This document shows positions 1 through 63,883 of a stretch of DNA of 64,000 nt, one piece after another. The stretch lies in sequence record NZ_CP104306.1; one strand, 5' to 3'. The position numbers and the translations under genes are program-made. Below the pieces are notes generated by a model. That model was not told the DNA's origin, did no database searches, and saw nothing but the letters and a program-made list of their open reading frames with translations. How positions within the stretch are numbered: position 1 is the stretch's first letter; every line of letters starts with the position of its first letter. The stretch comes from a plasmid.

Positions 1-249
1 AACTGGCTCCTTTTTGTTGACAGGATTTTTGCAGGAAACCATTTCAATCCTACCTATTTCTGCTAGTTCTACAGTCCATCATTATGGGGTGATTTTGTCA
101 TGTTTTAAATCACTTTATTTCTAAGTATTATGCTTGACAAGTAAATTAGTTTTTCGATCTTAGACCATTAGGGCATACCCTATTGGCCGTTTTTATTTCT
201 GCGCTATACTAGAAATTACAAATGTTCATTAGATTGTCCGAAAGGATAA

Positions 250-330
250 TTGGAAATGTCTAAAATCGGTTATGCGCGTGTGAGTTCCAAGGAGCAACAT
301 TTAGATCGACAGTTAGCGGCTTTAAGAACC
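250..330 (+). pseudogene. Serine recombinase (resolvase/invertase) N-terminal fragment, truncated by an IS insertion
   Basis: Translation MSKIGYARVSSKEQHLDRQ matches the N-terminal catalytic-serine motif of serine recombinases. About 22 nt are identical to the intact resolvase gene at 48218. The frame degenerates where the IS left inverted repeat begins (about 325), and no resolvase continuation follows the IS. Confidence 0.6.
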
Positions 331-386
331 TGTCTAGTATCTGCTGAATCTGGTAGAATTGTGGAAAACCGACTGAGGAGTTTGTC

Positions 387-707
387 ATGCCAGATTATCC
401 AAGCAATATTTCTCGAGCGCAATTTGCGTTAATACAACCTGATTTAGAAAACTTCCGCAAGCATACAAGACCGCGTCGTTATGATCTTTATGACGTATTC
501 AATGCCATTCTTTACTCGCTTACTACAGGGTGTCAATGGCGTGAATTACCGCACGATTTCCCGGAATGGCACACTGTCTACCGCTATTACGATATGTGGC
601 GAGATAAACCAGACCCGACAGCTGATTCGCTATTAGAAAGGCTTTTAAAAAAACTGTTGCTTCCTATCGCTTTGCATAGGGCCGATCGGCCCGAACGTCG
701 TTTGTGA
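387..707 (+). CDS. IS5-family transposase OrfA (N-terminal part)
   Basis: Motif [26 protein letters not shown] is typical of IS5/IS427-group transposase N-termini. Its stop TGA overlaps the GTG start of OrfB (GTGA). Confidence 0.7.
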
Positions 708-1174
708 TTGTTGATGCTCAAAGTGTTAAAACCACTGATTTAACGAAAAATAGTGGCTACGATGGCGGCAAAAAGATTTCAGGGATTAAGCGTCATATGG
801 CGGTTGATATTAATGGTTTACCACAAGCCATTCTCGTGACACGAGCTAATGTATCAGATCGTTCAGGTGCATTGGCTATGTTTAGTTTGGCTAGCCAAAA
901 TTTAGAGCTGGTTCAGTATGTCATGGTTGATGGTGGCTACACTGGCAATGACTTTGCGGATCAGGTGAAGCTCATTTTGAATGCTAAGACGACGGTAGCT
1001 AAACGCAACGAGTTGCATATGTTCACGGTGTTACCGCAACGATGGATCGTTGAACGTTCATGGAGTTGGCTAGACAAATGTCGGCGACTTTGGAAAAACT
1101 GTGAACGCGCCCTTAACAGCAGTCTTCAAATGGTTGTATTGGCCTTCCTGAAGATAGTTCTTAAAAGATACTAG
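704..1174 (+). CDS. IS5-family transposase OrfB (DDE catalytic part)
   Basis: Contains DGGY...VERSWSWL, the DDE_Tnp_1 C-terminal region of IS5-family transposases. It lies in the -1 frame relative to OrfA with a stop/start overlap. Confidence 0.7.
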
Positions 1175-1280
1175 ACAGGTTCTAAGATGCGGATGATAAA
1201 CGATGGATCATCATTGGTTCTTTAATGTTAAGCCTGATCTTTTTGTGGTTGTGGGCTGTTCTTCCGTGAATATCCTAGTC

Positions 1281-1338
1281 ATTGATCCAGCGAATACAGT
1301 CAGCGTGATGTTCACCGCGAAAGTATACTTTACCAGAA
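1281..1338. repeat. 58-bp direct repeat, copy 1 (about 91% identical to 4223..4280), flanking the R-M cassette
   Basis: Direct alignment of attgatccagcgaatacagtcagcgtgatgttcaccgcgaaagtatactttaccagaagt against 4223..4280. On the minus strand it encodes TSGKVYFRGEHHADCIRWIND, in frame directly after the TAG stop of the restriction endonuclease ORF. Confidence 0.6.
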
Positions 1339-1343
1339 GTCAA

Positions 1344-2558
1344 CTACCACAGCACATATTCGGATTGACGATCACGGACGAGTTCTACAAAGTCGCTAAC
1401 CTTCATGATCTTTGCCTTGTATTCTGGCGGATAACTCGCAAGGTATTCTTTTGGCACAATAAGTTGCACATTTTCTGATTCCATCTCTCGTAGCTGGTTC
1501 TTCGAGATACCCTGTTGCAGCGTTAATAAGTACTTTGGGCTGTTTTTAAGTCGATCGGCTTCTGTGATGACTTGGCGCCACCGGTCCTTACATGTTGTCT
1601 TCACGGCCAGCGAGGTTAAACCTGCCACTGGAAACGAGCTAAGCTTATATTTCTCGATAGATGGAAAGATGAAGTCAGGTTTCTTGTGCTCTTCAGTGAT
1701 AGCCTGTGGTGTGTAGTGTACTTGGTTTCCGTCTAGGATCGCCGCCACATGCGATTCAAATCCTTTGCCGGCACGACTCTTACGGCGGTTTAGAATACTG
1801 TTAGCCACTGCAACAAAGTCCTCGACATTATTAAAACCTTTATTCATCACATCGCAATATCTGATTTGCTCCACGAACTTGAATAGCAAGTACTCCACGT
1901 TGGTCCAACTAACGATCTTACTGTCAGGATCCTTAGTGATGCGTTCTGTATGATCCAGCACGCGTTCTTCAATCTGCCTAGCCGTCTGCGACATCTGAGT
2001 GGTTGTTGGGAAATCACCAACGCTTTGCATCAACTCCAGTGCGGCCTGCTGTAAGGCGTCTTGCAACTGTTCTTCCAGCGATTTGTTCTTGGTGATATGA
2101 TCCGCTCCGATGATGCTGTTTGTCTGAGTTGAATCAATACCGACGCCGGCCAAAAAATCCGTGATGGTGTCATCAGTATCGAAACGATAAACGGTCAGTT
2201 TATATGGTTGGTGCGCTACGAGTACAAAAAGTGAACCAGTATATTCGGGTAATATGAATTGATCGCCACGGCCCCAGCCAGTGATCCGCATCTCAGTCTT
2301 TGAGGGGTAGTAAATCACCGTCAGCTCGCGGACATCCTCTTGGTCTCCTTGTACAACTACTTCGACCTTACGCCGAATTGGCGCACCCGTCTTTGGGCGG
2401 TCGCCTTCAAAAAAAACACCAAACATGACGTTTCCTAGCAGAATGCCACTTTGGTGTGCCTTCGTCTCGCCACTATCATTGGCGGACATAAACTTGGTGT
2501 ATGCGATCGGATGCGACTGTACGTCAACTACAGCTTGATTACAGAGTTCGGTTGCCAT
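1344..2558 (-). CDS. Putative type II restriction endonuclease (partner of the adjacent C5-MTase)
   Basis: A 404-aa ORF whose end is separated by only 3 bp (2559..2561) from the methyltransferase gene on the same strand. It carries a KPDFIF...EKYK PD-(D/E)xK-like segment. No close named family is recognised. Confidence 0.5.
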   Translation of the reverse strand: MATELCNQAVVDVQSHPIAYTKFMSANDSGETKAHQSGILLGNVMFGVFFEGDRPKTGAPIRRKVEVVVQGDQEDVRELTVIYYPSKTEMRITGWGRGDQFILPEYTGSLFVLVAHQPYKLTVYRFDTDDTITDFLAGVGIDSTQTNSIIGADHITKNKSLEEQLQDALQQAALELMQSVGDFPTTTQMSQTARQIEERVLDHTERITKDPDSKIVSWTNVEYLLFKFVEQIRYCDVMNKGFNNVEDFVAVANSILNRRKSRAGKGFESHVAAILDGNQVHYTPQAITEEHKKPDFIFPSIEKYKLSSFPVAGLTSLAVKTTCKDRWRQVITEADRLKNSPKYLLTLQQGISKNQLREMESENVQLIVPKEYLASYPPEYKAKIMKVSDFVELVRDRQSEYVLW

Positions 2559-2561
2559 CGA

Positions 2562-3779
2562 CTACGCCTCTTTCATCAATAACTCAACGTCTTGTTGCTT
2601 ACCCATATCCAGTTCGATTAACTTGCTCTGAACCAACCGAGCTGCCTCAGTCATAATTGGCACTGCCACCGAGTTCCCGAATTGCTTATAGGCCTGCGTG
2701 TTGGAGACAGGAATTTTGAAGCTATCTGGGAAACCCTGCAGCCGGGCGCATTCGCGCGGCGTTAAGCGGCGTGGGTTTTTTCCCGGTTGTGGAATAAGAA
2801 TCTCACTGCCATCCTTGTAGTAGCGGGCAGACAGCGTCCGAGTGTGACTATCTAAGTCTGCCATACCATAGCCAAATCCGTTGCCGGCTTTACGGTGCTT
2901 TTCGGCATAGGCTTGGAGATAATTCCACAGCTTATCACTTAGAGTGTACTTATCATCGACTTTGGGCTCAAGAATCTCGCGCAGCACCGGTTTGTGTACT
3001 GGCTTCTTCAAGTTGAACTCGAAGTCAACATAGCCGTAACGCCGGCGATCAAAGCCGACAATCACAATTCGTTCGCGATGTTGTGGTACGAAATCCTGTG
3101 CATCCAGAATGGCATAGTGCACATCGTAATCTAGTTCGTTGAGGCTTTCCATGATAATTTTGAATGTCCGGCCCTTGTCATGACTCTTAAGGTTTTTTAC
3201 GTTCTCAAGAAAGATCGCTTTAGGCCGTTTTGCCTTGATGACCCGGCAAACATCAAAAAACAATGTGCCCTGCGTCTTATCTTGGAAGCCAGTGGCGCGG
3301 CCCATACTGTTTTTCTTTGATACGCCCGCAATGCTAAACGGCTGGCACGGGAAGCCAGCCACAAGAATATCGTGATCTGGAATCGACTTCTCATCAACTT
3401 TTGTGATATCGTCATCCGGCTGCACACCAAAATTAGCGAGATACGTCTGCTGGCTATACTTGTTCCATTCATTCGAGTAAACAGATTGCGAGCCATTATT
3501 CTCAAATGCTAACCGTAGTCCACCGATCCCGGCGAACAGATCGATAAACGTGTAACCTGATTTGTTCTGTTTCATCGTATCGACCTTCCCGACGTACTTA
3601 CACAACGCCATGGTCATGCTCTGCTGCAGCGTCTGCCCAGAGGCAACGGCTTTATCAACGAGCTTTTCATAGACGTCATCATCGACACGAAAATGCACTT
3701 GTTTAGTCATTCTATACCTCCAGGGATTTCTTGGTACCTTATTATTCCCCATAATACGGCAATGACTAAAGAATGTCAC
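2562..3779 (-). CDS. DNA (cytosine-5)-methyltransferase
   Basis: Motif I FAGIGG, motif IV GFPCQPFS and motif VI ENV are all present. Length is 405 aa. Confidence 0.85.
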   Translation of the reverse strand: MTFFSHCRIMGNNKVPRNPWRYRMTKQVHFRVDDDVYEKLVDKAVASGQTLQQSMTMALCKYVGKVDTMKQNKSGYTFIDLFAGIGGLRLAFENNGSQSVYSNEWNKYSQQTYLANFGVQPDDDITKVDEKSIPDHDILVAGFPCQPFSIAGVSKKNSMGRATGFQDKTQGTLFFDVCRVIKAKRPKAIFLENVKNLKSHDKGRTFKIIMESLNELDYDVHYAILDAQDFVPQHRERIVIVGFDRRRYGYVDFEFNLKKPVHKPVLREILEPKVDDKYTLSDKLWNYLQAYAEKHRKAGNGFGYGMADLDSHTRTLSARYYKDGSEILIPQPGKNPRRLTPRECARLQGFPDSFKIPVSNTQAYKQFGNSVAVPIMTEAARLVQSKLIELDMGKQQDVELLMKEA

Positions 3780-3784
3780 GGTAA

Positions 3785-4093
3785 TTATTTCGCATACTGA
3801 TTGATCTTATTCGGCCGAAAGCCAGACCAATACTCAATCAAACGGCCTTCGTCATCGACGATCTTGACGAGTGGCAGTTGTTGAATGTGATATTTGGCCT
3901 TCAAACGCTCGACTTTATGCTGACTCCACTCACGTTTACGCTGATCTTCTGCGCTTACATCAATGGAATTGCTTTTATCAGCATTGCCATAATAAGTATT
4001 CTGATACGGGTAACCCAGGCGATCAAACCACTTAGTTGTCATTTTACAAGCAGGGCAGTTCGGTTTGGTGTACAAAACAGCATGTGTTTTCAT
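3785..4093 (-). CDS. Glutaredoxin-like protein (NrdH/YruB-like, CPAC redox motif)
   Basis: YTKPNCPAC near the N-terminus in a protein of about 100 aa, a thioredoxin-fold signature. Confidence 0.55.
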   Translation of the reverse strand: MKTHAVLYTKPNCPACKMTTKWFDRLGYPYQNTYYGNADKSNSIDVSAEDQRKREWSQHKVERLKAKYHIQQLPLVKIVDDEGRLIEYWSGFRPNKINQYAK

Positions 4094-4123
4094 TAATTTG
4101 ATCTTCCTTTCCTTTTACCCTTG

Positions 4124-4483
4124 TTATGAGGGGGCAGGTAATCGCTGAATCAACATAGGTTCATCTATATCTAAATAAGTTTTTCGACTTGTGTGTAAGG
4201 TGTCACCAGTGCGTACCTGTGTATTGATCCAGCGAGTACAGTCCGCGTGATGTTCACCACGAAAGTAGACTTTACCAGAATTAAAGCCAACGACGGCGAA
4301 TTTAGGCTGTACACAAGCAGCCGCCAATTTTTTAAGGTTAGAATCCGAAATGCTTTCCTCAGAGTTTAGCAAACGTCGCACAGTACGATCATTTATTTTA
4401 GATTGTCTGGCAAATTCTGGGTTGCTCAGATTGTTCTTATTGATGTAGTTCTGAACCATTTTACGAACAGAATCACGATCCAT
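4124..4483 (-). CDS. Small HTH-type DNA-binding protein
   Basis: N-terminal NLSNPEFARQSKINDRTVRRLL is HTH-like. The C-terminus contains SGKVYFRGEHHADCTRWI, which is encoded by the 58-bp repeat. Confidence 0.45.
   Translation of the reverse strand: MDRDSVRKMVQNYINKNNLSNPEFARQSKINDRTVRRLLNSEESISDSNLKKLAAACVQPKFAVVGFNSGKVYFRGEHHADCTRWINTQVRTGDTLHTSRKTYLDIDEPMLIQRLPAPS
4223..4280. repeat. 58-bp direct repeat, copy 2
   Basis: See copy 1. Confidence 0.6.
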
Positions 4484-4689
4484 TAAATCAGACTCCTTCT
4501 ATTGTAATAAACCATTGTTGCAGTTAATTGTAACCCCGTACTTGCGTATTGATGGATGATGCATGAGACATATATGCCAAAAAGACTGTAGAGCTTAGTC
4601 CCATCAAGATAATCAAAGACAAAACCCAGCGTGTTCTTAATTTTATATGGAAGTCCTTTCTAATACATAGTGGTGGCCTTGCTGAGCAA

Positions 4690-5090
4690 ATAACGCTCAG
4701 TAAGGCTTAGTTTGCGTAGGGACGGCGGGCCCTAGGCCGACCCGCACGCCCCGGCAACGCCTTGTCGTTTCCGGATAGGTAACTGTCAAGTCAAGTCTGT
4801 ACCTAAACCCGATTGGTTGCCAGTTGTCGGCTATCGTGCAGATCATGTAAGACTTGTGCATAAAGCTTGTGGCTACCGCCACGCGGGCAAGCCCGCAGGT
4901 GCCCTTTCTACTGCCAGTTTTTGCCTGGCTTTGATTCCGCATTCAACCAGCAACAAAGCTGCTAAGGAACAAGTTCCTAAGCAGCTCTAGCAGAAAAAAC
5001 AAGGGCCGGGCAAAATTTTGTTCCGCAAAGAACACTCCACAAATTTTTGCCACTTTCGCTACGCTCACCCTTGCGTTTTCTGCCGTAGCT
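4690..5090. other. GC-rich (>60% GC) non-coding block with dense hairpin potential; candidate structured RNA or leader
   Basis: A local GC spike against a roughly 45% GC background, for example gtagggacggcgggccctaggccgacccgcacgccccggcaacgcc. Only short RBS-less ORFs overlap it. It lies immediately upstream of the operon starting at 5149. Confidence 0.3.
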
Positions 5091-5148
5091 GGTGTGCCTG
5101 TTACATCAAAGGCGGCTTCAAAAACCGCCGGTAGAAAGGGTGTCAGCA

Positions 5149-5595
5149 ATGGAGAAATTACCATTTTACCTGCCAATGATTGAAGACGATGAGGAGAGTG
5201 TTTTTGCCAGTTGGCCAAATGGGCAAAGAACCCACAATAAATTGAGTGAAGGGTTATACTCGTACATTCAAGAAATTGCTTTTAAAAGTCAAACGACCAG
5301 TCAAATTGAGAGAGACCGCTACGGTAACCAACGCCTAGCCTTTTATGCCAACGGTTGCGAAACACCTTATTACGTTACCGAAGACTTCCTATTTACGCCT
5401 AATCAAGCTCACGATGCAAAGAAGCTGTTAGTGACAGCACTCATGCTAGGTGATAGCAAGCTGACAGCGGTTGTATCTGACCAGTTACTAGCTCAACTTT
5501 CTCCGAAGACACGAGCATTTGCAAAATATCAGCTCATCAACCAACCAGCGCAACAGTTTATGGATGAACACATCAGCATTCAGGTTATCAAATAG
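5149..5595 (+). CDS. Hypothetical protein (first gene of a five-gene operon)
   Basis: ATG at 5149 follows gaaaggg. It is contiguous on the same strand with the downstream genes. Confidence 0.5.
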   Translation: MEKLPFYLPMIEDDEESVFASWPNGQRTHNKLSEGLYSYIQEIAFKSQTTSQIERDRYGNQRLAFYANGCETPYYVTEDFLFTPNQAHDAKKLLVTALMLGDSKLTAVVSDQLLAQLSPKTRAFAKYQLINQPAQQFMDEHISIQVIK

Positions 5596-5604
5596 GAGGC
5601 TACC

Positions 5605-5895
5605 ATGATTGATATTAGAAATACCTACAAACCTAATGTTCTGGAAGCTTGGATAAAGGAAACGAGAGAAGCCGGTAACTATGTGAGCGCCGAACTTATC
5701 CAGTTGCACGATGACCCACAACTAGGTAATGCCCTTGTGCTTGGCTTTCGCTTTGCTAAAACACCACGAGCACTTGTTGATGAAAACATAGTATTCAGCT
5801 TCACTCACGAAACTAGCGGCCCAGTTTTTTGGCAGTTGGTCGGTGTGGCGGAAGCGTACGCTAATGATTTCAATGAAGAACTAGCATTTGCATAA
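5605..5895 (+). CDS. Hypothetical protein
   Basis: RBS aggagg lies 6 nt upstream. It is operonic with its neighbours. Confidence 0.5.
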   Translation: MIDIRNTYKPNVLEAWIKETREAGNYVSAELIQLHDDPQLGNALVLGFRFAKTPRALVDENIVFSFTHETSGPVFWQLVGVAEAYANDFNEELAFA

Positions 5896-5908
5896 AGGAG
5901 TGTAAACA

Positions 5909-6358
5909 ATGACAAAAGGAAAGCTCTATCAAGTCAGCATTGACGAAATCGAATATCAACCGCACTTTATTATGGTTTACGCCAGTGAAGACGCTAAGGA
6001 CAAAGACCTACAGCGGCTCGCAACAAACTTTATTTTGAGTCAAAATCCAGAATTGCCAGAAAGTGCATTAGTCGATAGCGTCATTGTTGAACCACGTGAC
6101 CCGAACGAGAAACCAGACGTTGTGGCCGAGGGACTGCATGTCCCAACGCCTGCGTGGGGTGTCAAAATGGGCTTACTTTACGCACAGGCGGTTCACCATG
6201 CTACTTGCGATGACGATGAGTTTGATGAGGTGGCTTACGTTCGGGGCGAAACAAAGGCGAAACGATTTGAAACCGAGGCCGCCGCAAAAGAATTTGCTAA
6301 ATGGCTCAACCCGAATTGTGAAGTTGTTCCACTGGAAGAAGGTGACGACCATGATTGA
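5909..6358 (+). CDS. Hypothetical acidic protein
   Basis: RBS aaggag upstream. The protein is Asp/Glu-rich with an EEGDDHD C-terminus. Its stop overlaps the next start (ATGATTGA). Confidence 0.5.
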   Translation: MTKGKLYQVSIDEIEYQPHFIMVYASEDAKDKDLQRLATNFILSQNPELPESALVDSVIVEPRDPNEKPDVVAEGLHVPTPAWGVKMGLLYAQAVHHATCDDDEFDEVAYVRGETKAKRFETEAAAKEFAKWLNPNCEVVPLEEGDDHD

Positions 6359-6494
6359 CCACCAACAAGCACAAGTCGCATGGAGTGAAGTCATTGAGGA
6401 ACTGGACAGCGATACCTTTAATCGCTTGCGTCACGCGTTAGAACTCGTTGATGCTTATATTCGGCAAGGAACAGAAATCGAAAGAGGTCTTTAA
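6351..6494 (+). CDS. Small hypothetical protein (47 aa), translationally coupled
   Basis: The ATG at 6351 overlaps the upstream stop. The ORF runs to 6494, and the next gene starts at 6497. Confidence 0.35.
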   Translation: MIDHQQAQVAWSEVIEELDSDTFNRLRHALELVDAYIRQGTEIERGL

Positions 6495-6496
6495 CC

Positions 6497-6886
6497 GTGA
6501 AAACTGCCTACGACGAAGTTGTGAAACAGCCATGTGACAAACTCGCCCAGACCATGCAGGACATGACTTATTGTTACAACGAGACTGTGGTACCTAAGAA
6601 GCACTACAAGAAACTTCTGACGAAGCAACTTGAAGAGGTCGTGGCTGACAGCGTGGCTGTGAATATGGTCAATGCCTACTACAAAACACTTGCTGAATTC
6701 AACAAAGGTAATCGAGAGTGGTTCGTACTTGCTATCTTGTGCATTGAATTAGGAGTTAAGCCTGACAAAGCCAGTGCGCAAGAATTAAGCGCCCTGCAGA
6801 TGATTTCTAGCAACATTACTGGTAACCAAGCACCGCTACTCAATCCAAACATCAAGAATGCCTTTGAAGGTGCTATCAAGGCTTAA
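6497..6886 (+). CDS. Hypothetical protein (last gene of the operon)
   Basis: A 129-aa ORF separated by 2 nt (6495..6496) from the previous gene. Confidence 0.5.
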   Translation: MKTAYDEVVKQPCDKLAQTMQDMTYCYNETVVPKKHYKKLLTKQLEEVVADSVAVNMVNAYYKTLAEFNKGNREWFVLAILCIELGVKPDKASAQELSALQMISSNITGNQAPLLNPNIKNAFEGAIKA

Positions 6887-7013
6887 AGAGTGCAAGCGCA
6901 ATCTAGTCAGATTGTGCTTTTTCTGTTATAATGAGAATACAAACAGGGAGCACCCCCATAAGAGTGCTCCCCTAGCAGAGCCGTTTAAGACGGCGGTAAC
7001 TATTAGGTTAAAT

Positions 7014-7050
7014 AACCGTCAGCTAGCCAAAGCGAAGACGGTTATTTTTC
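7014..7050 (+). terminator. Rho-independent terminator of the 5149..6886 operon
   Basis: aaccgtc...gacggtt stem followed by TTATTTTTC. An upstream hairpin at 6946..6972 (gggagcac/gtgctccc) precedes it. Confidence 0.55.
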
Positions 7051-7149
7051 TACCATTAGTCAAGTAAAACGTTGATTGCATAGGATTTCATATACAGGCT
7101 AAGCTTGTATATGAGGTCTTTTTTCAGTTGATTTGTGGAAAGCAATGCT

Positions 7150-8800
7150 TTGAAGGTAAACTAAATAAACCTCTTGAAACGTTAATTTTCCAAGATGCTA
7201 TACTGTCTTCATAGGCTGTATGAGTTACTGTCTTGGTTGAGACACAGTTGGCTCATAAACTTCATTGTGCAAAACTAGGTGGAAGATCATTCTATTTAGA
7301 CGACTCATAACCGCGACCGCAATCTTCTTGGTTCCCTTAGACTGAGAGGATTGCTTTTTCATTTGGTAGAAGTCGTTAAAGCGTGTCGGTCGATATGAGG
7401 ACGCACTGATAATATTAATGACTGTACGGTACAAGACCTTTCTTGCCAAAGGGTTCCCACGTTTTCGGATACGCTGTTCGGCCGTATAGTCCCCAGATTG
7501 GTAAGTGGTTAAATCAATACCAATATACGCGTTAATGGCATTGGCACTATGAAATCGCCGAATATCGCCTAATTCCGCGATAATACACAACGCTGATTTA
7601 AGCGCAATCCCAGGAATTGTCGTTAAAATTGCAACCTCAGGCAAGTTTGTACCAATTTTAGCCATCTCCTCAATTAAAGATTTTTTTGAGCGGTCGAGAC
7701 GTTCAACTTCATATGCTAACTCGGTAACTCGCTTAAGCGCGTATGAATCAATATCTACTGCTGGCCCTGAACTTTTGGCCAACTCCAGGAGATGTTCAGC
7801 TAAATGCTGAGCCCGTTTAGGGCCCATATTCTTTGAAGTAGCTTTCAATATAATTGACGTTAATTCGGTGGAACTATGTTGTAACACCAGATATGGGTGT
7901 GGAAATATCTGGACAATGTGCCAGTATAAGGCCCCCTCAGTCCTACTTAGAAAATGTTCTATTTCCGGGAAAGTAAGCTGTAATTCATGATGAAGGCGAT
8001 TCTTATTACGCACGACGTCGTCGTTGTGCTCTTGATAGATTCGATGTAGATCACGTAATTCTGTGTATTCAGGCTTTTCTTGAAACGATGGTGCAAAATT
8101 GTTTCTGGACATCGCTTCTGCCAGACCAACAGCGTCAACCGAATCTGTTTTGACAATTCTAAAACTGTCCATTACTTTCTTAGCTTTTAGGGGATTTATC
8201 TCAGTATACAGCCAACCGTTACGATGAAAAAATGCGCGCCACGGTCGTGAGTAGATTCCTGTTGATTCAAATATAATCTTTGGTTCCCTAAAGCTGTTTA
8301 ACTCATCTTCGAGTCGCTCAAACCCTTCACGATTGCTTGATAGCTTAAATTCTTTGATAACTTGTCTATCAATCAAAACGGCCACATTAGCTGTGTGTTT
8401 ACTGATATCAATACCAAATATGCATTCCATTTGATACACCACCTTTTGAAGTTGTTTCACCGACTCACTCATCTCAATTTTCAATACACGGCGTCAAGCG
8501 CCAACACTCTTCGATCGAGTTCATTGATGAATCTGCGAAGTTGCCAGTTTTTTTTGCGACGTCTTTGCGCCAAAATAACCTCCGACATGTCAACTCCGTT
8601 ACCACTGTACCAAAAAAGCTTAGTGGTGAATCACAACCCCGTCGGATCATGGTTCATCACTAAGCTTAGAATGTTTTTTTGCTGATTTTTAATCAGCTCA
8701 ACAACTAATGCTATCAGGGCTACGACAAACGTGCCGAACCCTAGCATAAGCTGTAAAGCGTCCGAAATGGACACAAGGCTTCTCCTTTCGTTGGTATCGT
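7150..8800 (-). mobile_element. IS110-family insertion sequence (boundaries approximate; the family lacks terminal inverted repeats)
   Basis: Inferred from the transposase gene plus its long non-coding 5' end. The exact ends cannot be defined from the sequence alone. Confidence 0.3.
7225..8484 (-). CDS. IS110-family transposase (DEDD RuvC-like N-domain plus Transposase_20 C-domain)
   Basis: FGIDISKHT at the N-terminus and IPGIALKSALCIIAELGDIRRF...AYIGIDLTTYQSG in the C-domain. The true start is probably M at MECIFGIDISK. Confidence 0.8.
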   Translation of the reverse strand: MKIEMSESVKQLQKVVYQMECIFGIDISKHTANVAVLIDRQVIKEFKLSSNREGFERLEDELNSFREPKIIFESTGIYSRPWRAFFHRNGWLYTEINPLKAKKVMDSFRIVKTDSVDAVGLAEAMSRNNFAPSFQEKPEYTELRDLHRIYQEHNDDVVRNKNRLHHELQLTFPEIEHFLSRTEGALYWHIVQIFPHPYLVLQHSSTELTSIILKATSKNMGPKRAQHLAEHLLELAKSSGPAVDIDSYALKRVTELAYEVERLDRSKKSLIEEMAKIGTNLPEVAILTTIPGIALKSALCIIAELGDIRRFHSANAINAYIGIDLTTYQSGDYTAEQRIRKRGNPLARKVLYRTVINIISASSYRPTRFNDFYQMKKQSSQSKGTKKIAVAVMSRLNRMIFHLVLHNEVYEPTVSQPRQ

Positions 8801-60008: not shown

Positions 60009-61796
60009 CTATTTTGCCTCTACCCAACCGTGTGTCAATAAGCTCGTTTTTTTTTCATCAGCAAGATCTTGACTGGGAATTGCAACTGCTAATAAGTACT
60101 TTGGACGACTTAATGCTACATATGCTAGTTTAAGACAATCCCGCTGTAACTGTTCTATTTCTGGATCCGATGAAAAATCTGGTCGGTCTCCTAGTAAATA
60201 AGGAAAGATAGTTTTGAAGAACTTATTGATTTTGTCTTCTTCATTAAATTTCATGTGTACACATGAAGTTAGTAAAAGCAGTGTCGATCGATGTGTTTCA
60301 CCTTTAACTCCGTGAATTGTTGCAAATTCTCGGTGGACTGTCGATAAATTCATTCTTTCAGGTTCACCTTCTAGGTTGCTAACGTCTTGAAGCAGATGCT
60401 TGCATTCTCTTTGCAAATAAGCTTCTGAAATAGTTTCTGAACCAATTAGACTGTACAAATGATATTGTACCTCGTTCAATGAAATATTTTGTTTTGCGAG
60501 TTTCTGGATGACATCTGCTAATTCAAGGTTGCTATCATGATTATTACGGATTAGTACTGATTCTTCCATAAAAGAAACGCCATTCGCATTGGCCAATAAT
60601 TTGATAACCAATGCATAAATTTCACTGACACTTCTTTCATGAGCTCGTTGCTCTGAACCCTCTTTGGAATATTTGGGTTCAACTTTTATAATGTCGCTGT
60701 GCATTATTCCGACAATAGCATCTGGTTTCTGCAATATACGAAAATTTGGATTTGAACTGGCAGCGTCTTCGATCAGCCGAGTATGCTTTTCCTTGAGTTC
60801 GTCTCCAGTTTCATATGTCATAAAATACTTCGGAAAGAAATTTAGTTCTTGATTCGAATGGAATTGTTCATATTCCTGAACACAAACATGTTTAACTACA
60901 GCAGCAATTAAACTGCCAAACCTTGTAGTTTCAGAGATTTCTTTAGTCTGGTAGAATTCGTTATCGGGTCTCGGGTTCCAAGAGTCCTCTGTCTCGGATC
61001 CATAGATAGTATATAATGCTTGATACGGATCTCCAAATCTTTGTACATTCAACTGTTTGCCATTAGCCAGACCATTTATAATGGCAAACTGAATCCAATC
61101 GGTATCTTGAGCTTCATCGATCATTAAGTATGAAAATCGTTTCTCAAATGCCACGCTCAACTCGTCTCTATGTTTACTTAGATACCAATAAGACAATGAT
61201 TTGAGATCAGAATATGAAACATAGCCATCCCTTAACAGCCATTCGCATGCACGATTAATGGCATATTGACAACGCTGATTCTGGTGTCTGTTAGTGTAAT
61301 AAAATGATCCGTCATCTAAAATTACTAGCTTGCACCCATTTTTGGACGGCTTAGGTACGTTCCAATCTGAACGATAGTCCTTAACAATTCTCCTAAAATT
61401 TTTATCATACTTTTCATAGAACTTTTCATCATCTAAAAGCTTAAGCGTCACACCGGGTAGGACCGTGGCAAATGCAGTTTTACCTAAAAATTTATCCATG
61501 AAACTTTGAATAGTTCCTACAAAATTTGGATATTCAATTTCATCCACACCAGCAAGCTTCAACCGTGCTAAAATCTCTTTTACAGCAACATTGGTATGTG
61601 TAATACAGCAGATGCCTTTATCTTCGTAGTTGCGAGTGGTCAATAACCTTAACACCTTCGCTGCTAATACGGTTGTTTTACCTGATCCAGGTCCAGCTAC
61701 GACGTCAATTCGTCCTATTGCTTGAATAACTTCTCGCTGTTCCGCTGTAAAATGCGCACCGTGCAACAATATGCTTTCAATTTGCATCAAGTTCAA
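60009..61796 (-). CDS. UvrD/PcrA-like superfamily 1 helicase (GajB-like)
   Basis: Motif I VVAGPGSGKTT, motif II LMIDEAQDT and motif VI ALSRPKYLL. It overlaps the upstream gene by 4 nt. Confidence 0.6.
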   Translation of the reverse strand: MNLMQIESILLHGAHFTAEQREVIQAIGRIDVVAGPGSGKTTVLAAKVLRLLTTRNYEDKGICCITHTNVAVKEILARLKLAGVDEIEYPNFVGTIQSFMDKFLGKTAFATVLPGVTLKLLDDEKFYEKYDKNFRRIVKDYRSDWNVPKPSKNGCKLVILDDGSFYYTNRHQNQRCQYAINRACEWLLRDGYVSYSDLKSLSYWYLSKHRDELSVAFEKRFSYLMIDEAQDTDWIQFAIINGLANGKQLNVQRFGDPYQALYTIYGSETEDSWNPRPDNEFYQTKEISETTRFGSLIAAVVKHVCVQEYEQFHSNQELNFFPKYFMTYETGDELKEKHTRLIEDAASSNPNFRILQKPDAIVGIMHSDIIKVEPKYSKEGSEQRAHERSVSEIYALVIKLLANANGVSFMEESVLIRNNHDSNLELADVIQKLAKQNISLNEVQYHLYSLIGSETISEAYLQRECKHLLQDVSNLEGEPERMNLSTVHREFATIHGVKGETHRSTLLLLTSCVHMKFNEEDKINKFFKTIFPYLLGDRPDFSSDPEIEQLQRDCLKLAYVALSRPKYLLAVAIPSQDLADEKKTSLLTHGWVEAK

Positions 61797-63883
61797 TCTT
61801 GTTCAACCTCCTGCCCACTTGCAAACTTAATCGCATTAATTAAATACTTGCATTCTTCATTTTGTGAATGTGTTGTATCGCCAATAATTTTATTTTTCAG
61901 CTCTTCCTTTTCATCTTGACTAAGACCCATAATTAGTTTTGCTAATTGTTCACTAACCTGTGTTTTTGAAACCGAGCCTTTGTTCAAGGCTGCATACGCA
62001 TTGTATGCAGCCATATTCGGACTTGTTTTATAATCTTCTTCAAATTTTTTAATAAATTTTTCCCGATGATTTTCTCTAACGAATTGTGTTTCAGCTATCG
62101 CTTGAATCGTAAGATGACGCAAAGAGCTACGCAAAAGACTGTACTCCAAAGTCCATAATGGCGACATGAATATTTTACTATTGGAACTAAATTCTTCGTA
62201 TTTTTGATTGAGACACTCTTGCCTTTCTGCTGTCTTACTGGCCCAGTCAGAATCAGATCGGAATTTTTTTACCTGAATAATTAAATTCTTAATTTTAGTA
62301 TTTTCAAATCTTAGTTTAAAAGCAGCTACTAATTCAGCAAAAGTCGCATACTCCTCTCCGAACAAGTCAACATTCAAATCGCTAGGGCCACTAATCAACT
62401 CCTGGATTTTTTCAGCGCTCTCTGAATCGATACCATACACAGTCGGATTAATATCTGAATCTGTAATTATAGAGATAGGGATACCAATTTTTTCTGATTT
62501 TTCTTTTTGAGAAAACAGTTTAATATATTGATTAAAGCTTGTCCCGCCAACGTTTACAATTGAGATACCAGAACGATGTAACGGTAAATTTATTAAATCT
62601 GCCAGGGCTGGTAATAAAATATTTTCCGCATATCCCTCCACCAAAATAATTCCTTTTGCAAAGAATAGGTTACTCTTTGTTGCATCTAAAAATCGATTCA
62701 AAAAATCATAATCAGCTTCCTCAAGCATGGTGTCCTCAGGTGCCATCGAATAGGCTTTATTAGCGTTCATATATATCAGCGATCTTTGATCTATCGATGC
62801 GGTCAGTGCAACACTATGTGAAGTCAATATAAACTGCTGAGATGAATTATCCTCTGTGCTAAGAATATAGCGCTCGATGTATTTAATTAGTCGTATCTGA
62901 GCCTGCACGTGCAAGTGCGCCTCTAATTCCTCTATAAGCATAATGTTTGGACCATAAACCACTGAACTTGAATGATCCTTTAGCAGCGCTAACTCGGTCG
63001 AAATGTACAACAGGTTCAAGTTCCCCAATCCCAAATTGACGCTTTCTGAACTTAAACTTAGCTGTTTGAATATTTGATCAAGTGTAACTTGTGTTAGTTG
63101 AAAGCGCGTGTCACTTTTATCCTGATCTTGACTATCAAATAACTGCCTCAATACCGAATGAAGTTCTTTATTAATTGATTGTTTTTCCAAATTATTATCA
63201 GAAAGATGATCGTTATCTTTAGGTGGATTCGATTCACTTGGAAAGCCATCTGAGAGATATCCCTCTATTATTGCGTTGGCTTCCTCCAACGCTTGGACAA
63301 GTTTTAATTTATGTTCTGGGTGATTTCGAAACTCCGAGTGTGCTGCAAGTAATTGTGGCAGATGTGAGCGAAAGCCAGGAGTTAATTCATCTGTTGCATT
63401 TCTCAGAGCTTTTAAGTATGTAACACGTAAGTATACTCGTGCCCCACTTGCTAACGAAGATTCTGCACCTTCATCTCCTGCAACTAGATTTCGATCTAAA
63501 TATTGACGTCCAGCTTCACTCGTTTTGCGCTCAACTGTTAGTTTTACATGTAACTCATATTCATTATTATCGTCAAACGACAGCCACTCTAGAAAAGTTC
63601 CAGCCTCGTACTTGTTGAGACTACAAAATACAGCCTCAATCTTAAAATCATTTGAAAACTCGGTCCCGTCAAAATAGAAATCCTCGTCTTGAATACTGGT
63701 TCGATCATCGCTAACTGTTCCAAGCAACATTTTAATTGCATCGATAACTGCAGTTTTCCCTGAATCATTTTCACCGACAATGATATTCAAGCCCGGATGA
63801 AATTTTACTATCAATCCAGGTTCCCCATTCACCTGAGAAACAAATTTTCGAAAATCATACAGTTTAACAGTTTTTAGAAACAC
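61793..63883 (-). CDS. OLD-family ABC-ATPase plus Toprim nuclease (GajA-like)
   Basis: An N-terminal Walker A IIVGENDSGKTAVIDAIKMLLG. A C-terminal Toprim domain with GIILVEGYAE and IITDSDIN (DxD). Length is 696 aa. Confidence 0.6.
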   Translation of the reverse strand: MFLKTVKLYDFRKFVSQVNGEPGLIVKFHPGLNIIVGENDSGKTAVIDAIKMLLGTVSDDRTSIQDEDFYFDGTEFSNDFKIEAVFCSLNKYEAGTFLEWLSFDDNNEYELHVKLTVERKTSEAGRQYLDRNLVAGDEGAESSLASGARVYLRVTYLKALRNATDELTPGFRSHLPQLLAAHSEFRNHPEHKLKLVQALEEANAIIEGYLSDGFPSESNPPKDNDHLSDNNLEKQSINKELHSVLRQLFDSQDQDKSDTRFQLTQVTLDQIFKQLSLSSESVNLGLGNLNLLYISTELALLKDHSSSVVYGPNIMLIEELEAHLHVQAQIRLIKYIERYILSTEDNSSQQFILTSHSVALTASIDQRSLIYMNANKAYSMAPEDTMLEEADYDFLNRFLDATKSNLFFAKGIILVEGYAENILLPALADLINLPLHRSGISIVNVGGTSFNQYIKLFSQKEKSEKIGIPISIITDSDINPTVYGIDSESAEKIQELISGPSDLNVDLFGEEYATFAELVAAFKLRFENTKIKNLIIQVKKFRSDSDWASKTAERQECLNQKYEEFSSNSKIFMSPLWTLEYSLLRSSLRHLTIQAIAETQFVRENHREKFIKKFEEDYKTSPNMAAYNAYAALNKGSVSKTQVSEQLAKLIMGLSQDEKEELKNKIIGDTTHSQNEECKYLINAIKFASGQEVEQD

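Follow-up and report, generated by a model that had tools for sequence, protein, structure and literature searches.

An EcoRII-like restriction-modification cassette beside the stump of an HTH-family gene on a plasmid of Lacticaseibacillus paracasei

An EcoRII-like type II restriction-modification (R-M) cassette on the plasmid NZ_CP104306.1 very probably lies beside the remnant of a regulator gene: it splits no gene, its loss would restore none, and the arrangement is ordinary plasmid patchwork. The window, i.e. the whole stretch of 64,000 nucleotides that was analysed, is part of an IS-rich conjugative plasmid of L. paracasei. A sequence-only reading had described a module of endonuclease (REase), methyltransferase (MTase) and glutaredoxin-like genes nested between 58-bp direct repeats in a split HTH gene, and had thought this architecture unusual; we found instead a cassette next to the stump of another copy of the gene. 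The features are collected in Table 1.

Table 1. Features of the cassette region and its left flank
Feature	Position	Strand	Remarks
Serine-recombinase/resolvase 5' fragment, ~23 codons (MSKIGYARVSSKEQHLDRQLAAL)	257..324	+	Cut off by IS5-family element; N-terminus resembles the resolvase of L005
IS5-family insertion sequence	325..1183	+	Perfect 18-nt terminal inverted repeats; transposase in two frames, 387-707 and 704-1174
Pseudogene stump, codons 67-119 and stop of second HTH-family copy	1182..1343	-	In-frame TAG at 1275-1277; natural stop overlaps IS5 end
Repeat copy 1	1281..1343	-	Conserved core (SGKVYFRGEHHADCIRWIN) within the pseudogene stump
EcoRII-like type II REase, 404 aa, full length	1344..2558	-	Pfam EcoRII-N and EcoRII-C; PDB 1NA6 E=2.4e-57; PADLOC REase_II
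C5-cytosine DNA methyltransferase, 382 aa from ATG at 3710	2562..3710	-	Pfam DNA_methylase; NCBIfam dcm; PADLOC MTase_II
Cassette promoter and proximal boundary	3751..3786	-	GTGACA-17 nt-TATTAT, 10/12 matches in promoter scan; directly past the glutaredoxin stop
Glutaredoxin/NrdH-like gene, 102 aa	3785..4093	-	Pfam Glutaredoxin/Thioredoxin_2; NCBIfam NrdH below cut-off
HTH-family gene, lineage A, intact, 119 aa	4124..4483	-	Divergent from conjugation region; weak Pfam HTH_3, E=4e-4
Repeat copy 2	4223..4285	-	Conserved core (SGKVYFRGEHHADCTRWIN) within the intact HTH-family gene

A repeat search of the window confirmed the repeat where it had been reported. The segments 1281-1343 and 4223-4285 form a direct repeat of 63 nt with 57/63 identical positions and a spacing of 2942; over the 58-nt span first proposed the identity is 54/58. 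These values are far beyond the best direct 63-mer match in shuffled bases 1-8000 (34-37/63, n=20). The reading frames are likewise as described: the codons following the TAG stop of the REase (1344-1346, minus strand) read LTSGKVYFRGEHHADCIRWIND-TAG in frame and on the same strand, and the copy inside the HTH gene encodes NSGKVYFRGEHHADCTRWIN. The extent given to the first of these copies holds only in part. The coding stretch up to the TAG is correct, but the copy does not end at 1281: protein homology continues past the TAG at 1275-1277 to a stop at 1182-1184. Between the core of lineage A and that of lineages B/C of the gene family, 8-9 codons differ synonymously and 3-4 non-synonymously. 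As the differences are mostly synonymous, conservation acts on the protein and not on a DNA site. The “58-bp direct repeat” is thus the most conserved protein-coding core of an HTH gene family, present once in a live gene and once in a stump, with no separate function.

The first of the two genes is intact, so the cassette has not split it. It is full length, and its product is 96-99% identical to those of genes on R-M-free plasmids, with 99% to WP_016374046.1 (L001) and 96% to that of the L002 gene, both likewise of 119 aa. By tblastn of the protein, the family was found in 59 PLSDB records, with 56 full-coverage copies of a length like that of the 119-aa gene; in PLSDB and in the protein collection that we searched it is almost wholly confined to Lacticaseibacillus plasmids. 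The assignment to HTH proteins comes from a Pfam HTH_3 match of 20.8 bits, under the 23-bit cut-off. Profile searches of NCBIfam, PADLOC and PDB gave no match for the protein, and its AlphaFold2 model has a mean pLDDT of 47.

XRE-type regulators that are divergently transcribed stand at the start of conjugation operons, e.g. Rco of pLS20. The window gene is also small, putatively HTH and divergent from a transfer region, which in related plasmids is annotated with pLS20_p028-family, VirD4, VirB4 and MobP2 genes. It differs from Rco in that we found no sequence or structural relation for the 119-aa protein (no match in PDB or NCBIfam, and a poor model). The putative regulator may act on the divergent promoter region. 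A role as controller (C) protein of the R-M system was considered and rejected: a conserved promoter belongs to the cassette itself, and in three other contexts the HTH gene does not accompany it.

The HTH and glutaredoxin-like genes also occur as a pair without R-M genes on H1-H6 and L002, among them several Lacticaseibacillus plasmids, and L002 is homologous to the window precisely as far as the glutaredoxin stop, 3785. The glutaredoxin-like gene belongs, by this conserved pairing, to the plasmid backbone as the downstream partner of the HTH gene, outside the R-M cassette of which it had been taken to be a part. What lies between the repeats is therefore not one unit: it is made of the 3' tail of the HTH gene, the backbone glutaredoxin-like gene and the R-M cassette. 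The last of these is foreign, as had been proposed for the REase and MTase genes. It is self-contained and smaller than the proposed module, from about 1344 to 3786, with its own promoter.

These limits follow from comparison with M-R homologues found in three other settings. That of a Levilactobacillus brevis plasmid (L005) aligns only to window positions 1348-3752 (76%), and those of Lacticaseibacillus suibinensis (L008 and L009) only to 1358-3786 (82-83%); the latter two share the promoter sequence ahead of their MTase gene, and 3786 is where they cease to match the window. No HTH-family remnant is present beside the cassette in any of the three. The GC content of the cassette is 0.46-0.52, that of the adjoining sequence 0.40-0.43. 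The distal junction lies within ~3 nt of the REase stop, at codon 67 of an HTH-family copy. Because this junction is inside the gene, the second copy was destroyed at or after the arrival of the cassette.

Within the cassette M precedes R. The REase aligns end to end with its homologues, and the PDB 1NA6 match covers both of its domains. It carries both the N-terminal effector domain (PF09217, E=4.5e-11) and the C-terminal catalytic domain (PF09019, E=1.4e-57) of EcoRII, has the length of the 1NA6 chain, and its partner is, as in the EcoRII system, an adjacent Dcm-like C5 methyltransferase (PF00145, E=4.7e-96; TIGR00675 above cut-off). Apart from the catalytic domain it is nevertheless only distantly similar to E. 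coli EcoRII, against which the N-terminal domain scores only 23 bits. The MTase has an N-terminal extension of ~50 aa, which may be a ribbon-helix-helix domain: its N-terminal 52 aa give a weak NikA-like match (E=0.0034). The predicted specificity of the unit is probably CCWGG, and the unit probably acts as a module for defence and plasmid addiction. A Gabija system lies near the opposite end of the window; it may form, with the R-M cassette, part of a defence cluster on the plasmid.

The second HTH-family copy is a decayed paralogue of the first. In tblastn, residues 59-114 of the intact protein match the stump with E=1e-16, and 53 codons survive. The stump core is 90% identical to lineage A and 73-76% to lineages B/C; its tail is only 47% identical to lineage A, i.e. 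to the intact gene at 4124-4483, against 70-78% to B/C. Such a difference between core and tail indicates that the two repeat copies come from different paralogous lineages. They are thus not the halves of one ancestral gene, and paralogy of the copies is what the sequence-only reading had itself named as evidence against its model. We rejected an apparent continuation of the homology into the last REase codons (EYVLW-stop versus KFAVVG), the motif RQxEY/F being native to REase homologues.

The stop that follows RWIND in the stump is a nonsense mutation in place of a Gln codon of its relatives: in lineage C (RWIN[DE]QAIHG), the TAG at 1275-1277 aligns with CAA (Gln). All full-length members of the family run ~32 residues past RWIN. 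No intact gene of the stump's parent lineage turned up, the best match being 78-80% identical over the tail, and no extant gene combines an A-like core with a C-like tail. One has therefore to assume either that paralogues had recombined at least once before or that a lineage is unsampled.

The switch of lineage in the stump coincides exactly with the invariant TGGATCAAT, where the core has its 3' edge, and this can be read in another way. The core would be a recurrent joint for homologous recombination between co-resident conjugative plasmids, at the edge of the transfer region, where defence genes or other cargo downstream of the regulator are swapped, and the stump would be the fossil of one exchange. 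The cargo at this position does vary (endonuclease, glutaredoxin gene, R-M, sortase, IS elements), and mosaic family members exist, P0131 and P0132, with a B/C-like N-terminus and an A-like remainder. But these two switch elsewhere, so that a switch at the core is seen in the stump alone; the R-M junction at codon 67 is illegitimate, i.e. non-homologous; the synonymous divergence reveals no constraint on the core at the DNA level; and an unsampled lineage accounts for the mosaic equally well. We regard this explanation as unlikely.

Beyond the stump lies the IS5-family element, with inverted repeats 325-342/1166-1183 that are 100% complementary and a transposase matching Pfam DUF4096 and DDE_Tnp_1; copies on other L. 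paracasei plasmids are 95-98% identical. The sequence beyond it does not continue the interrupted resolvase gene. In L003 and L004, lineage-B genes that are intact abut this IS5 at the position where the stump does. Two family copies on one record occur in 5 of the 59 PLSDB records. One plasmid, pWX1 (NZ_CP044237, L018), resembles the window in carrying an intact family copy together with a 3' HTH stump beside an IS5-family element, with no R-M genes involved. In pWX1, however, the stump was cut by the IS itself, whereas in the window its 5' break faces the R-M cassette and the IS5 stands at the natural 3' end of the gene.

The same arrangement, stump and IS5 included, is present in the assembly GCA_003712505.1 (L006, 99.5% identical), and the run SRR28523178 (L007, 99.75%) has the same layout as far as its contig reaches, ending just inside the IS5. 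An apparent 113-bp deletion in L006 with a breakpoint in the core was set aside as an assembly artefact because its junction contains an “N”. That the stump is kept at an identity of at least 99.5% in these two other assemblies, with a TTG immediately past the REase stop, could mean that it is functional, either as a 22-aa peptide starting at this TTG or as an RNA or terminator element of the R-M operon. We give this hardly any credence: a ribosome-binding site is lacking, 1184-1343 has no terminator-like site on the minus strand, and Rfam gives no match; the stump is absent from the homologous cassettes elsewhere; and its reading frame stops earlier than that of every family member.

An insertion into a single HTH gene predicts related plasmids with a single-copy, uninterrupted gene ending in RWIND. 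PLSDB contains neither such an empty site (megablast of 1150-4700, sensitive blastn of the stump and tblastn of the HTH protein) nor an RWIND-ending gene, and both this ending and the chimeric protein are absent from the 24 family clusters of a collection of 5.8 billion proteins. A metagenome scan for AATGACYAGGATATTCACGG returned two unrelated chance matches only. A two-piece match to CAUH35 (H7/H8) looked like an empty site; it is really an IS5 inserted in the glutaredoxin gene at window position 3954, and since the left flank of CAUH35 differs from that of the window it cannot be called a deletion derivative. Our search of the literature on L. paracasei plasmid R-M systems found nothing specific to this locus.

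Furuta, Abe and Kobayashi (2010; PMC2853133) screened for direct repeats >30 bp that flank R and M genes and enclose an insert <20 kb. [quoted passage not shown] The locus is like the target duplications in that REase (1344-2558) and MTase (2562-3710) both lie between the repeats (1343, 4223), in that repeats of 63 nt spaced by 2942 bp are within these sizes, and in that the interval holds no integrase. It differs in that the repeats are 90% identical and not near-identical, and belong to two paralogous genes. No related genome with one repeat and contiguous flanks turned up in PLSDB, the protein clusters or the metagenome scan, and the adjoining sequences are not halves of one locus, each copy having its own gene 3' end. 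The present case is an insertion between pre-existing repeats, i.e. the third class of Furuta et al. (PMC2853133), and not a target duplication.

The sizes and placement of the repeats, which satisfy that screen (PMC2853133), and the second copy standing in frame just past the REase stop are also what a single HTH gene split by a circular R-M element would give, by Campbell-type integration or long target duplication, with ~60 bp duplicated and the gene restored upon excision. This model is largely refuted, and we consider it very improbable. The upstream gene is complete with its own, different tail; the interval holds backbone sequence (the HTH tail and the glutaredoxin gene); the identity of the copies is only 90%; neither the empty site nor the RWIND-ending gene exists in the collections above, where metagenome matches arose by chance only. 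More events are also required than in the stump model: the resident gene must already have been an A/C chimera, and the circle must have carried R joined illegitimately to codon 67. Nor would excision regenerate an HTH gene: a crossover between the copies gives a truncated chimera of 88 aa, with loss of both the glutaredoxin gene and the R-M system. Recombination between the copies is itself unlikely because their longest uninterrupted identity, i.e. the longest perfect match, is only 14 bp.

In the preferred explanation, a cassette beside a gene remnant, the parts fit together as follows. The HTH-family gene at 4124-4483 and the glutaredoxin-like gene form a conserved backbone pair, whose transcription leads away from the transfer region. 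Directly past the glutaredoxin stop stands the R-M cassette (promoter, m5C methyltransferase and endonuclease), with its far end joined to codon 67 of a second HTH-family copy of another lineage. This second copy is reduced to its last 53 codons, carries a nonsense mutation and ends at the IS5 as intact lineage-B copies do elsewhere. Illegitimate recombination or a deletion, on a plasmid with two HTH paralogues, probably created the junction, either when the cassette arrived or later. No R-M-free plasmid with the left flank of the window was found, so that we infer, and do not observe, the order of events (the cassette and then the deletion, or both together).

The locus is best annotated as an EcoRII-like R-M cassette adjoining an HTH-family pseudogene stump and an IS5; to call it an excisable cassette within a split regulator gene would be wrong. 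Beyond annotation this has little import. It calls for caution with direct repeats around R-M genes, which can be the conserved cores of paralogues and not target duplications, and it adds one more context for an R-M cassette that moves as a promoter-M-R unit of ~2.4 kb among plasmids of Lactobacillaceae.

A repeat search of the window gave a direct repeat of 63 nt (1281-1343 and 4223-4285) with an identity of 57/63 and 2942 bp between the copies. Since the best 63-mer match in 20 shuffles of bases 1-8000 was 34-37, this repeat is not due to chance. The 58-bp direct repeat that the sequence-only reading had placed at 1281-1338 and 4223-4280 is present (54/58 over that span), and the in-frame reading on from the TAG of the endonuclease (REase, 1344-1346) is indeed LTSGKVYFRGEHHADCIRWIND-TAG. 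The perfect runs shared by the two copies are of 13, 7, 14, 8 and 12 bp, i.e. 14 bp at most. Between lineage A and lineages B/C of this HTH family the core (the repeat region) differs by 8-9 synonymous vs 3-4 non-synonymous codons; thus the protein is conserved, and not a DNA recombination site.

HTH-family homology runs past 1281, through the TAG at 1275-1277: by tblastn, residues 59-114 of the intact HTH protein match window 1367-1200 (E=1e-16). Beyond this TAG the frame reads DIHGRTAHNHKKIRLNIKEPMMIHRLSSAS-stop, and it aligns end to end with the last third of the family proteins, e.g. lineage C with RWINEQAIHGRTAHSYKKIRLNLKEPMIIKHLPSAS. By this full-length alignment, 1182-1343 is codons 67-119 and the stop of a second HTH-family gene copy. 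The TAG following RWIND occupies the position of a CAA (Gln) codon in lineage C and is thus a nonsense mutation, the gene being no longer functional. Past RWIN, all full-length members extend by ~32 residues, and no RWIND-terminated member was found among the 24 family clusters of a 5.8-billion-protein collection. The core of this stump is 90% identical to lineage A; its tail is 47% identical to lineage A vs 70-78% to B and C. The copies are therefore not duplicates of one gene but belong to two paralogues, and the stump is no duplicate of the neighbouring intact HTH gene. The natural stop of the stump adjoins an IS5-family element, and in plasmids CP041658 (L003) and CP048004 (L004) intact lineage-B genes meet this IS at an identical point.

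The first copy, of the full 119 aa, shares 99% identity with its counterpart on plasmid CP012188 and 96% with the one on CP014987 (L002), each likewise 119 aa long; the idea that the cassette splits it is refuted. The family is present in 59 PLSDB records (58/59 Lacticaseibacillus), 56 of which hold a copy with at least 80% query coverage. The HTH and glutaredoxin-like genes form a pair that occurs without R-M genes on the related plasmids H1-H6, so the latter gene, previously assigned to the inserted module, is not part of it; homology between L002 and the window ends exactly at 3785, the glutaredoxin stop. Transcription of this pair diverges from that of a 20-kb transfer region, which has 93-95% identity with many L. 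paracasei plasmids; these are annotated there with MobP2 relaxase, VirD4, VirB4 and pLS20_p028-family genes. Between the HTH gene and these transfer-side genes, the intergenic stretch 4650-5150 is GC-rich (0.51-0.54), holds a 22-nt inverted repeat (4902-4923/5119-5140) and gave no hit in Rfam; an oriT or a control region could be located here.

The HTH-family gene of lineages B and C, like that of some lineage-A plasmids, shares an operon with a gene for a DNA/RNA non-specific endonuclease (Endonuclea_NS_2), which precedes it by 5 nt (L003 4033-5291, L004, L012 2770-4025, L017 2904-4162). Because of this operon, the small protein may have a nuclease-linked role, such as immunity, rather than that of a plain regulator. 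In NZ_CP012188 (L001) the same IS5 (3176-4034) lies within the glutaredoxin-like gene, at a point equal to window 3954; thus IS5 repeatedly remodels this locus. The same two-piece pattern in NZ_CP017262 and a match starting at the same position in NZ_CP007124 suggest the same breakpoint.

A core-to-core crossover would deprive the intact gene of its own tail and also delete the glutaredoxin gene, the methyltransferase (MTase) and the REase, leaving an 88-aa chimera that terminates at the nonsense codon. Such a form was found neither in PLSDB nor among the 24 family clusters. Cassette loss, proposed to regenerate an RWIND-ended HTH gene, would thus give a truncated product; PLSDB has no related plasmid with this gene intact and without R-M, and the clusters have no such protein. 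For RecA-type recombination, a perfect run of 14 bp is shorter than the minimal processing segment normally needed, and post-segregational killing selects against cells that lose an R-M unit. The same arrangement is found in GCA_003712505.1 (99.5% identical, including the stump and part of IS5) and in run SRR28523178 (99.75% identical, up to a contig end just inside IS5). GCA_003712505.1 also shows an apparent deletion that ends in the core, but its junction holds an 'N', which makes an assembly artefact the probable cause.

Close REase homologues were found in other contexts, with identities of 82% (L005, a Levilactobacillus brevis plasmid), 86% (L008, a Logan contig) and 87% (L009, a Lacticaseibacillus suibinensis contig). 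Nucleotide homology to the window is confined to 1348-3752 (L005) or 1358-3786 (L008, L009): it starts at the conserved promoter that precedes the MTase gene (GTGACA-17 nt-TATTAT, 3779-3751) and stops within the final REase codons, the last 2-7 residues differing in every context. No HTH-family remnant lies beside the cassette in these three contexts. By these limits the unit is a promoter-M-R cassette of ~2.4 kb, glutaredoxin-like gene excluded; its GC (0.46-0.52) is slightly richer than that of its neighbours (0.40-0.43). The proposal of a foreign cassette in or beside an HTH gene is thus only partly supported: the cassette does adjoin a broken HTH-family copy, yet it interrupts no gene, and its loss would restore none.

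The R-M system is an ordinary EcoRII-type one, and NCBI already annotates an identical REase protein (P0001). The MTase has an N-terminal extension of ~50 aa with a weak NikA-like ribbon-helix-helix match (E=0.0034), which hints at autoregulation; the HTH gene, considered as a controller protein, is then not needed as such. A CCTGG (CCWGG) site covers the MTase ribosome-binding region (window 3710-3740, minus strand, CCCTGGAGG), at the same position in L005 and absent in L008 and L009. If the system is CCWGG-specific, this site might tie methylation to the expression of the system itself.

Window 257-1183 contains a serine-recombinase gene that the IS5-family element interrupts near codon 23; beyond the element lies the unrelated HTH stump. 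With unrelated DNA on its two sides, IS5 is a recombination joint of two former contexts. TAA occurs at either end of it, but in this IS family that carries no information. The RatA match implies a putative type I toxin-antitoxin locus; a 'putative holin-like toxin' is annotated near this region on related plasmids. A 419-aa ORF lies in the early transfer-side region. The related plasmid NZ_CP078098 has an IS110-family transposase annotated somewhere in its matching region. A complete Gabija defence system occupies 60009-63883 (minus strand). If the window is about the whole circular plasmid, Gabija, IS5 and the EcoRII-like R-M make up a single defence cluster.

Features of the window around the repeat pair and in its defence and transfer-side regions
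Feature	Coordinates	Strand	Remarks
IS5-family element	325-1183		perfect 18-nt terminal repeats; adjoins natural stop of stump
EcoRII-like endonuclease	1344-2558	minus	
C5-cytosine methyltransferase	2562-3710	minus	
Glutaredoxin/NrdH-like gene	3785-4093	minus	
HTH-family gene	4124-4483	minus	119 aa
RatA antitoxin RNA (RF01776)	6929-7014	plus	Rfam 55.4 bits, gathering score 49
419-aa ORF	7225-8484	minus	early transfer-side region
Gabija GajB	60009-61796	minus	PADLOC E=5.5e-261
Gabija GajA	61793-63883	minus	PADLOC E=1.5e-210

Repeats flanking R-M genes have been sorted into three classes: site-specific recombination, insertion with long target duplication, and chance insertion between repeated sequences (Furuta, Abe, Kobayashi; PMC2853133). 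The locus passes the screen of that study (R and M inside, insert <20 kb, repeat >30 bp) but fails its defining test, a single-copy empty site with both flanks aligned (PMC2853133). As its repeats come from two paralogues, it falls in the third class.

In the simplest account, the starting plasmid would have had the backbone lineage-A HTH and glutaredoxin pair plus a diverged second copy ending against IS5. The R-M cassette would then have come to sit downstream of the glutaredoxin gene, and an illegitimate joint, at insertion or by later deletion, would have linked codon 67 of the second copy to the 3' end of the REase gene. Two family copies occur in 5/59 PLSDB records, and pWX1 holds an intact copy and an IS5-cut 3' stump with no involvement of R-M. 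A Campbell-type integration is less parsimonious: the resident gene would have to be chimeric beforehand, and the circle would have to bear the illegitimate joint already. The stump has an A-like core and a C-like tail, with the switch at the invariant TGGATCAAT; such a mosaic calls for either a lineage not yet sampled or an earlier homologous crossover between paralogues. Further mosaics occur in the family (P0131, P0132). That cargo is exchanged time and again by crossover in the conserved core of the family, which would be mildly novel, seems to us improbable; the locus is ordinary IS-driven plasmid mosaicism.
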